64,000 bases of DNA from Escherichia coli (GTDB lineage Bacteria > Pseudomonadota > Gammaproteobacteria > Enterobacterales > Enterobacteriaceae), in NCBI RefSeq assembly GCF_003334815.1, contig NZ_QOWO01000021.1, one strand, 5' to 3'. Positions within the stretch are counted from its first letter, which is position 1, and every line of letters starts with the position of its first letter. The notes under the pieces were generated by a model that was not told where the DNA came from, did no database searches, and saw nothing but the letters and a program-made list of their open reading frames with translations. A program made the translations under genes and the position numbers. Of the stretch, positions 51,115 through 53,626 are shown piece after piece.

Positions 51115-51328
51115 AAAATCACAGGGCAGGGAAACCTGCCCTTGTTTCAGCGCGCTTTTAGAGCACGCAATTTTTCATACTCTAAATAATTCGAGTTGCA
51201 GGAAGGCGACAAGAGAGTGAATCCCCAGGAGCTTACATAAGTAAGTGACTGGGGTGAGCGAACGCAGACGCAGCACATGCAACTTGAAGTATGACGAGTA
51301 TAAGGCCCGACGATACAGGACAAGAGAC

Positions 51329-52408
51329 ATGTCTAAGATTTTTGATTTCGTAAAACCTGGCGTAATCACTGGTGATGACGTACAGAAAGTTTTCCAGGTA
51401 GCAAAAGAAAACAACTTCGCACTGCCAGCAGTAAACTGCGTCGGTACTGACTCCATCAACGCCGTACTGGAAACCGCTGCTAAAGTTAAAGCGCCGGTTA
51501 TCGTTCAGTTCTCCAACGGTGGTGCTTCCTTTATCGCTGGTAAAGGCGTGAAATCTGACGTTCCGCAGGGTGCTGCTATCCTGGGCGCGATCTCTGGTGC
51601 GCATCACGTTCACCAGATGGCTGAACATTATGGTGTTCCGGTTATCCTGCACACTGACCACTGCGCGAAGAAACTGCTGCCGTGGATCGACGGTCTGTTG
51701 GACGCGGGTGAAAAACACTTCGCAGCTACCGGTAAGCCGCTGTTCTCTTCTCACATGATCGACCTGTCTGAAGAATCTCTGCAAGAGAACATCGAAATCT
51801 GCTCTAAATACCTGGAGCGCATGTCCAAAATCGGCATGACTCTGGAAATCGAACTGGGTTGCACCGGTGGTGAAGAAGACGGCGTGGACAACAGCCACAT
51901 GGACGCTTCTGCACTGTACACCCAGCCGGAAGACGTTGATTACGCATACACCGAACTGAGCAAAATCAGCCCGCGTTTCACCATCGCAGCGTCCTTCGGT
52001 AACGTACACGGTGTTTACAAGCCGGGTAACGTGGTTCTGACTCCGACCATCCTGCGTGATTCTCAGGAATATGTTTCCAAGAAACACAACCTGCCGCACA
52101 ACAGCCTGAACTTCGTATTCCACGGTGGTTCCGGTTCTACTGCTCAGGAAATCAAAGACTCCGTAAGCTACGGCGTAGTAAAAATGAACATCGATACCGA
52201 TACCCAATGGGCAACCTGGGAAGGCGTTCTGAACTACTACAAAGCGAACGAAGCTTATCTGCAGGGTCAGCTGGGTAACCCGAAAGGCGAAGATCAGCCG
52301 AACAAGAAATACTACGATCCGCGCGTATGGCTGCGTGCCGGTCAGACTTCGATGATCGCTCGTCTGGAGAAAGCATTCCAGGAACTGAACGCGATCGACG
52401 TTCTGTAA
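51329..52408 (+). CDS. fbaA: Fructose-bisphosphate aldolase class II
   Basis: Translation from MSKIFDFVKPGVITGDDVQKVFQVAKENNFALPAVNCVGTDS... recognised as FbaA. Confidence 0.96.
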   Translation: MSKIFDFVKPGVITGDDVQKVFQVAKENNFALPAVNCVGTDSINAVLETAAKVKAPVIVQFSNGGASFIAGKGVKSDVPQGAAILGAISGAHHVHQMAEHYGVPVILHTDHCAKKLLPWIDGLLDAGEKHFAATGKPLFSSHMIDLSEESLQENIEICSKYLERMSKIGMTLEIELGCTGGEEDGVDNSHMDASALYTQPEDVDYAYTELSKISPRFTIAASFGNVHGVYKPGNVVLTPTILRDSQEYVSKKHNLPHNSLNFVFHGGSGSTAQEIKDSVSYGVVKMNIDTDTQWATWEGVLNYYKANEAYLQGQLGNPKGEDQPNKKYYDPRVWLRAGQTSMIARLEKAFQELNAIDVL

Positions 52409-52432
52409 GATATTCCTTTCTGCTTATCTCAA

Positions 52433-52457
52433 GGCCCGCTCTGCGGGTCTTTTTTTC
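52433..52457 (+). terminator. Intrinsic terminator of fbaA
   Basis: Hairpin ggcccgc-tctg-gcgggtc followed by TTTTTTT. Confidence 0.8.
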
Positions 52458-52462
52458 GCCAA

Positions 52463-52578
52463 AAGCAAAATTGCCTGATGCGCTACGCTTATCAGGCCTA
52501 CACGTATCCTGCAATATATTGAATTTGCAGGTTTTTGTAGGCCGGATAAGGCGTTCACGCCGCATCCGGCATGACAAA
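52463..52578. repeat. REP/BIME cluster
   Basis: gcctgatgcgctacgcttatcaggcc and taggccggataaggcgttcacgccgcatccggca units; followed at ~52598-52627 by a second copy of the ccgctctgcggg terminator hairpin. Confidence 0.8.
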
Positions 52579-52765
52579 GCGCACATTGATATCTGTCTGA
52601 GCCCCGCTCTGCGGGGATTTTTTCGCCAAAAGCAAGGTGATTCAGATGAGAAATCTGTGATCTATTTGGCAAAATTATGCTTTATTGTTTACCCTTGTCA
52701 GACTGCCCGTCATAAGGCGGCGGAGTGTATTTCTCCATTTTGAGTCAGTTGAAAAGGAATATTGA

Positions 52766-53626
<861 letters not shown>

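Follow-up and report, generated by a model that had tools for sequence, protein, structure and literature searches.

Why does the same terminator hairpin stand twice between fbaA and mscS, once on either side of a REP cluster? The question bears on a large family of repeats. Several hundred REP and BIME elements are carried by each E. coli genome, and they have been studied for 40 years. TnpA-REP, to our knowledge the only enzyme proposed for REP/BIME mobility, has been shown in vitro to cut and join DNA; no footprint is left by insertions of its family.

The window (the whole 64,000-nucleotide stretch of E. coli DNA that was analysed) carries on the + strand fbaA, encoding class II fructose-bisphosphate aldolase (51329-52408, stop codon 52406-52408), and mscS, encoding the small-conductance mechanosensitive channel (52766-53626). 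The identity of fbaA follows from identical matches annotated fbaA in E. coli genomes, and its start is deduced from the annotated CDS of 1080 nt. Two copies of a repeat lie in the spacer, both on the + strand. Copy 1 (52432-52468, AGGCCCGCTCTGCGGGTCTTTTTTTCGCCAAAAGCAA) is the original intrinsic terminator of fbaA followed by CGCCAAAAGCAA; its stem-loop occupies 52431-52451 and its run of seven T 52450-52456. Copy 2 (52600-52635, AGCCCCGCTCTGCGGGGATTTTTTCGCCAAAAGCAA) is the duplicated terminator, again followed by CGCCAAAAGCAA; its stem-loop occupies 52602-52616 and is followed by A and six T. From copy 2 to mscS extends an unduplicated spacer (52636-52765, + strand), presumed to hold a promoter and leader.

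The two copies are alike well beyond the level expected by chance. They differ by three substitutions and one T indel over 37 nt and have a perfect core of 18 nt in common (TTTTTTCGCCAAAAGCAA). This core is the longest exact direct repeat of the region 52200-52900, for which 1000 first-order Markov simulations gave a maximum of 14 nt. In gapped local alignment the copies reach a score of 52, and the highest null score is 27. A terminator scan classes both as terminator-like, and each combines a GC-rich stem-loop with an adjoining T tract on the transcribed strand. Copy 1 folds with 9 pairs (-14.1 kcal/mol, z = -3.4), copy 2 with 6 pairs (-11.6 kcal/mol). In the stem of copy 2 a G.T pair is replaced by C-G, both sides being changed, and the next pair outward is broken; the stem stays strong and all-GC despite the change on both sides of one pair. 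The alignment, the simulations and the terminator scan confirm what the earlier note had read from the sequence, namely a terminator hairpin, a T-run and a following string occurring twice, on either side of a REP pair. The positions it gave for both hairpins were right to within a few bases, and the alignment of the two segments that it proposed shows similarity reaching beyond the hairpin, over 37 nt and far above chance. No paper treating fbaA, mscS and the terminator together was found in the accessible literature.

Judged by its sequence, the interval between the copies is a BIME-1, a non-coding element of about 130-150 bp, with a Y-REP, IHF-type linker, Z1-REP and right terminal motif. 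It is extragenic, between the stop of fbaA and the start of mscS, and all its parts are given here on the + strand. The left terminal motif is represented by the remnant AATT (52469-52472, from an alignment of 25 BIME-1 sites), the rest of the motif (consensus GAGACTGATGACAAACGCAAAACT) being missing at fbaA. The Y-type REP, a palindromic unit (52473-52501), is inverted relative to the Z1 REP and near-invariant over the 25 aligned sites. The long linker, L (52502-52536), contains the IHF-consensus-like core CTGCAATATATTGAATTTGCA at 52509-52529, which is conserved among BIME-1 sites and is a candidate IHF site. The Z1-type REP (52537-52571) starts with GTAG; its exact 29-mer, GGATAAGGCGTTCACGCCGCATCCGGCAT, is common to 120 metagenome loci. 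The right terminal motif (52572-52599) is diverged from the consensus GAACAAAGCGCACTTTGTCAGCAATCTGA and abuts copy 2 directly, likewise at other BIME-1 sites. The Y-REP and Z1-REP of the fbaA site align column for column with those of 24 other sites. The extended consensus of the 25-site alignment reads GAGACTGATGACAAACGCAAAACT, Y-REP, linker, Z1-REP, GAACAAAGCGCACTTTGTCAGCAATCTGA; conservation drops sharply outside these ends, which are inverted repeats of each other (12/14 positions matching). The canonical right terminal motif is retained in the E. whittamii orthologue (L009), and a search with the E. whittamii flank finds it again at many further loci of E. coli (identity 90-95%, with 96% of the flank covered).

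Two Rfam families overlap the element. ES036/CssrF matches the linker (window 52494-52536, - strand, 47.3 bits against a gathering score of 37.6), and a partial match to naRNA4 (CssrE) lies over the Z1 REP; apparently it is the repeat element itself that these 'sRNA' families describe. No repeat feature is annotated within the fbaA-mscS spacer of the MG1655 record. The external flanking motifs of BIME-1 were reportedly named A and B by Gilson in 1991. An origin of the terminal repeats from IS30 was considered; it was rejected on comparison with the real IS30 ends of MG1655, to which the similarity is not significant. Among IS30, IS911 and IS5, the three elements compared with the BIME-1 ends, none gave a significant match (best p = 0.06).

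Elements of the BIME-1, RIP or RIB type are said to consist of a Y-REP, an L linker with an IHF site and a Z1-REP, in descriptions credited to Gilson (1991), Boccard and Prentki (1993) and Oppenheim (1993). The fbaA element is like them in the content and order of its REPs and linker, in its 3' extragenic position and in its length of about 140-150 bp, and is unlike the standard BIME-1 in that the left terminal motif is missing. With REPINs (RAYT/TnpA-REP, IS200/IS605-like Y1 HUH) it has in common an inverted REP doublet, a long hairpin, a non-coding nature and a supposed mobilisation in trans. It is polymorphic among strains in the manner of BIME-1, for which presence or absence among isolates is stated in a passage of PMC1187871 citing Bachellier 1997. 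The fbaA-mscS element in itself is an ordinary, standard BIME-1; the modestly interesting and apparently undescribed part is the duplication of the stem-loop as a signature. A BIME-1 bracketed by a duplicated terminator stem-loop is not described in the accessible literature, a search in which the primary papers of the 1990s were not included, so that an earlier description is possible.

The spacer exists in two forms in E. coli. The long form is present in 3726 of 5426 complete genomes, K-12 among them (357 bp in MG1655), and the remainder are 167 bp shorter. This difference corresponds exactly to the REP cluster plus one repeat unit. On alignment, the short allele has a single terminator, identical to copy 1, and neither BIME nor second copy; the stretch 52636-52765 is alike in long and short alleles except for one variable base. 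In about 50 other species of Enterobacteriaceae (mscS loci, one genome per species; Citrobacter, Klebsiella, Kluyvera, Enterobacter, Kosakonia and others) the spacer is 176-194 bp long and contains one hairpin and no trace of BIME. Two divergent genomes labelled E. coli agree with these species in spacer length (about 190 bp) and in having a single hairpin. Because these outgroup species and both divergent genomes carry one hairpin, the single terminator copy is ancestral. The comparison of strains that the earlier note had called for is thereby answered in favour of one copy (about 1700 short E. coli genomes and about 50 other enterobacterial species), and its suggestion of a local duplication made or mediated by REP insertion is supported, the short alleles without the REP pair having one terminator.

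The long form with the same junctions occurs also in E. whittamii and in Escherichia sp. E1V33. A GGGGA change in copy 2 is common to E. coli and E. whittamii; the duplication event is therefore old. Some short E. coli alleles could have arisen secondarily, by precise loss through the repeats. Flanking SNP states occur with long and short forms alike, a distribution compatible either with recombination or with recurrent loss. In E. whittamii (L009:2330-2372) the stem-loop of the second copy is replaced by GGCCGCCAGGATAGAGGGGA, which gives no fold (z = +0.97), while the T-run and CGCCAAAAGCAA are still present; the second hairpin is therefore not kept in every lineage. The spacer of Escherichia sp. 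E1V33 is 527 bp long (L008:1973-2501) and has the order terminator, BIME, terminator, BIME, terminator, a 168-bp unit of BIME-1 plus terminator being repeated in tandem; its third hairpin has the ancestral form, its middle hairpin a variant form. BIME-1 elements are described as single copies, whereas tandem arrays of BIME-1 plus hairpin are seen here in E1V33, at yjcB-ssb (L087) and in L212.

The fbaA site is one of several. Six other BIME-1 loci, fetched to define the ends of the element, unexpectedly had a locus-specific GC-rich hairpin on both sides. A metagenome scan with the exact Z1 29-mer gave its 120 loci at 39 distinct genomic sites, a set that is not an unbiased census. For 21 strictly canonical sites, fbaA excluded, the 45 nt abutting each end were compared, with 420 mismatched pairs as controls, in which the left flank of one site was set against the right flank of another. 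The left-right direct repeats of seven of these sites score above all 420 controls (Mann-Whitney p = 8e-5 for the test). Of 26 recognisable BIME-1 sites from metagenomes that were inspected by eye, 12 have direct repeats of a locus-specific stem-loop on either side of the element, about eight have a hairpin on one side only and three have none.

Shorter E. coli alleles were read at uspB-pitA, phb-tkt, metE-ysgA, narP-ccmH, srmB-yfiE and mog-satP, each with one stem-loop; with fbaA-mscS included, the empty allele holds one stem-loop at seven of the seven bracketed loci tested. The arrangement of a target-site duplication, a direct flanking repeat that is single-copy in the empty site, is found at fbaA-mscS and at the six other loci. 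In most cases the stem-loop of the empty site is a bidirectional terminator of two convergent genes, preceded by an A-run and followed by a T-run; occupied sites read stem-loop, BIME-1, stem-loop, and the A-run and T-run remain outside. The duplicated lengths are approximately 20, 21, 21, 25, 25, 26 and 37 nt, the last at fbaA. The duplicated segment (20-26 nt, fbaA apart) coincides with the stem-loop to within 1-2 bases, and its length, not fixed as in a transposase-type duplication, tracks the stem-loop.

The copies are in direct orientation. Of 11 copy pairs, 10 are more alike in direct than in inverted orientation and one is tied, and the idea of a second hairpin made as an inverted copy by palindrome extension or fold-back synthesis was rejected on this ground; asymmetric loops and stem mismatches, which keep the direct orientation, also contradict a fold-back copy. 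Differences between copies lie mainly in loops or on both sides of a pair, and most copies still fold. No pair of copies is identical (2-6 differences in about 20-37 nt), and no fresh event was seen. At cueO-gcd the empty site already has a hairpin, and BIME-1 stands at the 3' foot of this hairpin with no duplication. Given this locus and the sites with a hairpin on one side or none, duplication is therefore frequent but not obligatory. A rule that would make the left copy ancestral in every case and the right one error-prone was true at the first four loci, failed at three more and was abandoned. The right copy equals the empty site at narP-ccmH, and both copies differ from the empty site at srmB-yfiE and mog-satP; the flanks of yiiF-fdhE are too divergent to inform, and the element at entD-fepA is nearly fixed.

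Two side observations concern the flanking hairpins. At five loci (L090, L088, L089, L117, L219) the two copies of a site are about 9-25% different (2-6 positions in about 20-27 nt), and occupied alleles have 93-99% identity to the corresponding empty alleles (L213, L215, L216, L217, L218) over about 400 nt of flank, which is mostly coding and makes the comparison a rough one. Given the time since insertion, the hairpin copies look more diverged than expected. The excess may come from hypermutability of hairpins, from error-prone synthesis during insertion or from selection, and processes acting after insertion may have shaped the copies in general. At the metagenome sites L126 and L168 the flanks of BIME-1 are inverted complements, for example GCGGGTTT, element, AAACCCGC; here BIME-1 appears to split one hairpin, and not to separate two copies of it.

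The arrangement at fbaA probably goes back to an ancestor from which part of the genus Escherichia descends, and in which a BIME-1 would have inserted beside the fbaA terminator and duplicated the target, giving the order terminator, BIME-1, terminator. BIME-1 would integrate at the feet of a GC-rich stem-loop. The two strands would be broken at opposite feet of an extruded hairpin or cruciform, BIME-1 would be joined to the broken ends, and gap filling would then copy the whole stem-loop. It is purely from the geometry of the sites that we infer this staggered-break model. As a tentative and rather doubtful generalisation, BIME-1 may be a structure-targeting element whose insertions fall at the feet of GC-rich stem-loops, in most cases those of intrinsic or bidirectional terminators, and duplicate the stem-loop as a whole. 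If this is true, the length of the duplication would be set by DNA secondary structure and not by transposase geometry, BIME-1 would have spread by a mechanism other than the IS200/IS605 'peel-and-paste' assumed for REP elements, and the position of BIME-1 at the 3' ends of transcription units would be explained.

Known mobile elements match this behaviour in part. Like bacterial MITEs, BIME-1 is short and non-coding, with terminal inverted repeats (12/14), flanking target repeats and single-copy empty sites. The duplications of MITEs are short, and the transposase fixes their length; those of BIME-1 range from 20 to 37 nt and coincide with a stem-loop, and no insertion sequence with matching ends was found among IS30, IS911 and IS5. 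TnpA-REP cuts single-stranded DNA between C and T. Target duplications are not made by its family (PMC3333891), nor are they left by single-strand transposition of the IS200/IS605 type (PMC3333891, PMC2817692). C-T dinucleotides of this kind sit 2-3 nt inside both conserved ends of BIME-1. Unlike the products of REPIN or IS200/IS605 transposition, about half of the BIME-1 sites (12/26) have a direct duplication of 20-37 nt, which is absent at cueO-gcd. The hairpin duplication does not fit the no-duplication transposition expected of TnpA-REP.

The fbaA site is atypical in the extent of its duplication, and an extra assumption is needed to account for it. Its right junction is canonical, the right terminal motif standing directly against the hairpin. 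The duplication extends 17 nt further, comprising the T-run and CGCCAAAAGCAA, in place of the left terminal motif, and the left junction lies in microhomology between the target (CCAAAAGCAA) and the motif (ACAAACGCAA). A junction of the original event may have formed at this CAAA(A/C)GCAA microhomology. Alternatively, a canonical insertion may have been followed by a short conversion patch from the downstream repeat, which would have replaced the left motif and restored a complete hairpin-plus-U-tract terminator directly after fbaA. With either reading a complete terminator stands directly after fbaA, and the BIME is therefore probably little transcribed.

Other histories of the locus have to be weighed against insertion with target duplication. 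The long two-terminator form may have been ancestral in Escherichia and the short form a precise deletion between the direct repeats, a history that is given less than an even chance. 'Excision of a whole BIME-1' is said to be the wording of a 1997 abstract by Bachellier. A crossover in the 18-nt perfect core would regenerate exactly the short allele, the flanking SNP states are found on both forms, and the long form is old, with the same junctions and the shared GGGGA in E. coli, E. whittamii and Escherichia sp. E1V33; BIME-1 polymorphism was, moreover, earlier described as presence or absence among isolates (PMC1187871). Set against such deletion are about 50 species of other genera with a one-hairpin spacer of about 190 bp and no trace of BIME; it follows that the single-copy state is the earlier one and that an explanation of the duplication is still required. 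The main rival on the side of mechanism explains the duplication differently, by two events: BIME-1 would insert at the foot of the hairpin by single-strand insertion, without duplication, and the hairpin would be copied across later, a step for which replication slippage, a template switch or gene conversion, favoured by the large palindrome, would account. The chemistry of Y1/HUH transposases, which makes no duplication (PMC3333891), fits this history, as do the cueO-gcd element at a hairpin foot without duplication, the sites with a one-sided hairpin, which are about as frequent as those with two, and the left junction at fbaA, which lies in microhomology and resembles a templated patch. 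Such a succession is nevertheless considered unlikely: only empty and fully bracketed alleles were seen at the seven bracketed loci (one or a few alleles read at each), at independent loci the second copy stands exactly against the terminal motif, and fold-back at the palindrome would yield inverted copies whereas the copies are direct.

Common descent of the two hairpins might itself be questioned. The second could be an independent structure, a terminator or insulator of mscS or the 3' end of an sRNA, whose likeness to the first is convergence or chance; its strong all-GC stem, kept through a two-sided pair change, and the matches to Rfam sRNA families inside the BIME would agree with such an origin. 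These matches, however, are to the linker and REP of BIME-1, and the likeness of the copies includes 18 identical non-structural bases past the stem, above all 1000 simulations. Copy 2 is, in addition, absent wherever the BIME is absent, and the E. whittamii copy is decayed (fold z = +0.97). An independent origin is extremely improbable and is effectively refuted. Insertion of BIME-1 with duplication of the terminator is retained as the preferred history.

Two further features were noticed near the locus. The 10 nt right after the fbaA stop codon (window 52410-52419, ATATTCCTTT) are perfectly complementary to 52753-52762 (AAAGGAATAT), the ribosome-binding region of mscS, just upstream of its ATG at 52766. 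Chance alone would give about 0.2 such complementary pairs in 700 nt, and the spacers of Citrobacter and Klebsiella do not conserve the complementarity. On a read-through transcript the predicted pairing could occlude the Shine-Dalgarno sequence of mscS. The pgk-fbaA spacer, upstream of the fbaA start, has on the + strand (window 51175-51294) a full-length but sub-threshold Rfam match to the Vibrio antisense RNA AS5 (38.9 bits, E = 3.8e-6; gathering score 96), which may reflect a conserved fbaA leader.

For the fbaA-mscS locus, insertion with target duplication would have consequences for transcription and for stability. The two tandem predicted terminators, 168 bp apart, would keep the BIME largely untranscribed and insulate mscS, copy 2 acting as a backstop before this gene. 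The pair is like tandem intrinsic terminators in having two GC-rich stem-loops with T-runs on the same strand, 3' of a highly expressed gene, and unlike them in the distance of 168 bp, in the mobile element between and in that the stem-loops are paralogous copies of each other. The direct repeats would permit precise loss and tandem expansion by unequal recombination, and duplicated hairpins would make such a locus prone to both. Annotation pipelines and terminator predictors will count such pairs as independent terminators. The insertion would rewire the 3' ends of genes, providing tandem terminators as at fbaA, or, at convergent genes, moving the hairpin-plus-U-tract beyond the element. For the REP/BIME family, a reproducible footprint, in which a whole terminator hairpin is duplicated directly at numerous independent loci and matching empty sites exist, provides testable constraints on BIME mobility; its form speaks for hairpins or cruciforms as targets and for breaks at each of the two feet, and it suggests a reason for the position of BIME-1 at gene ends.
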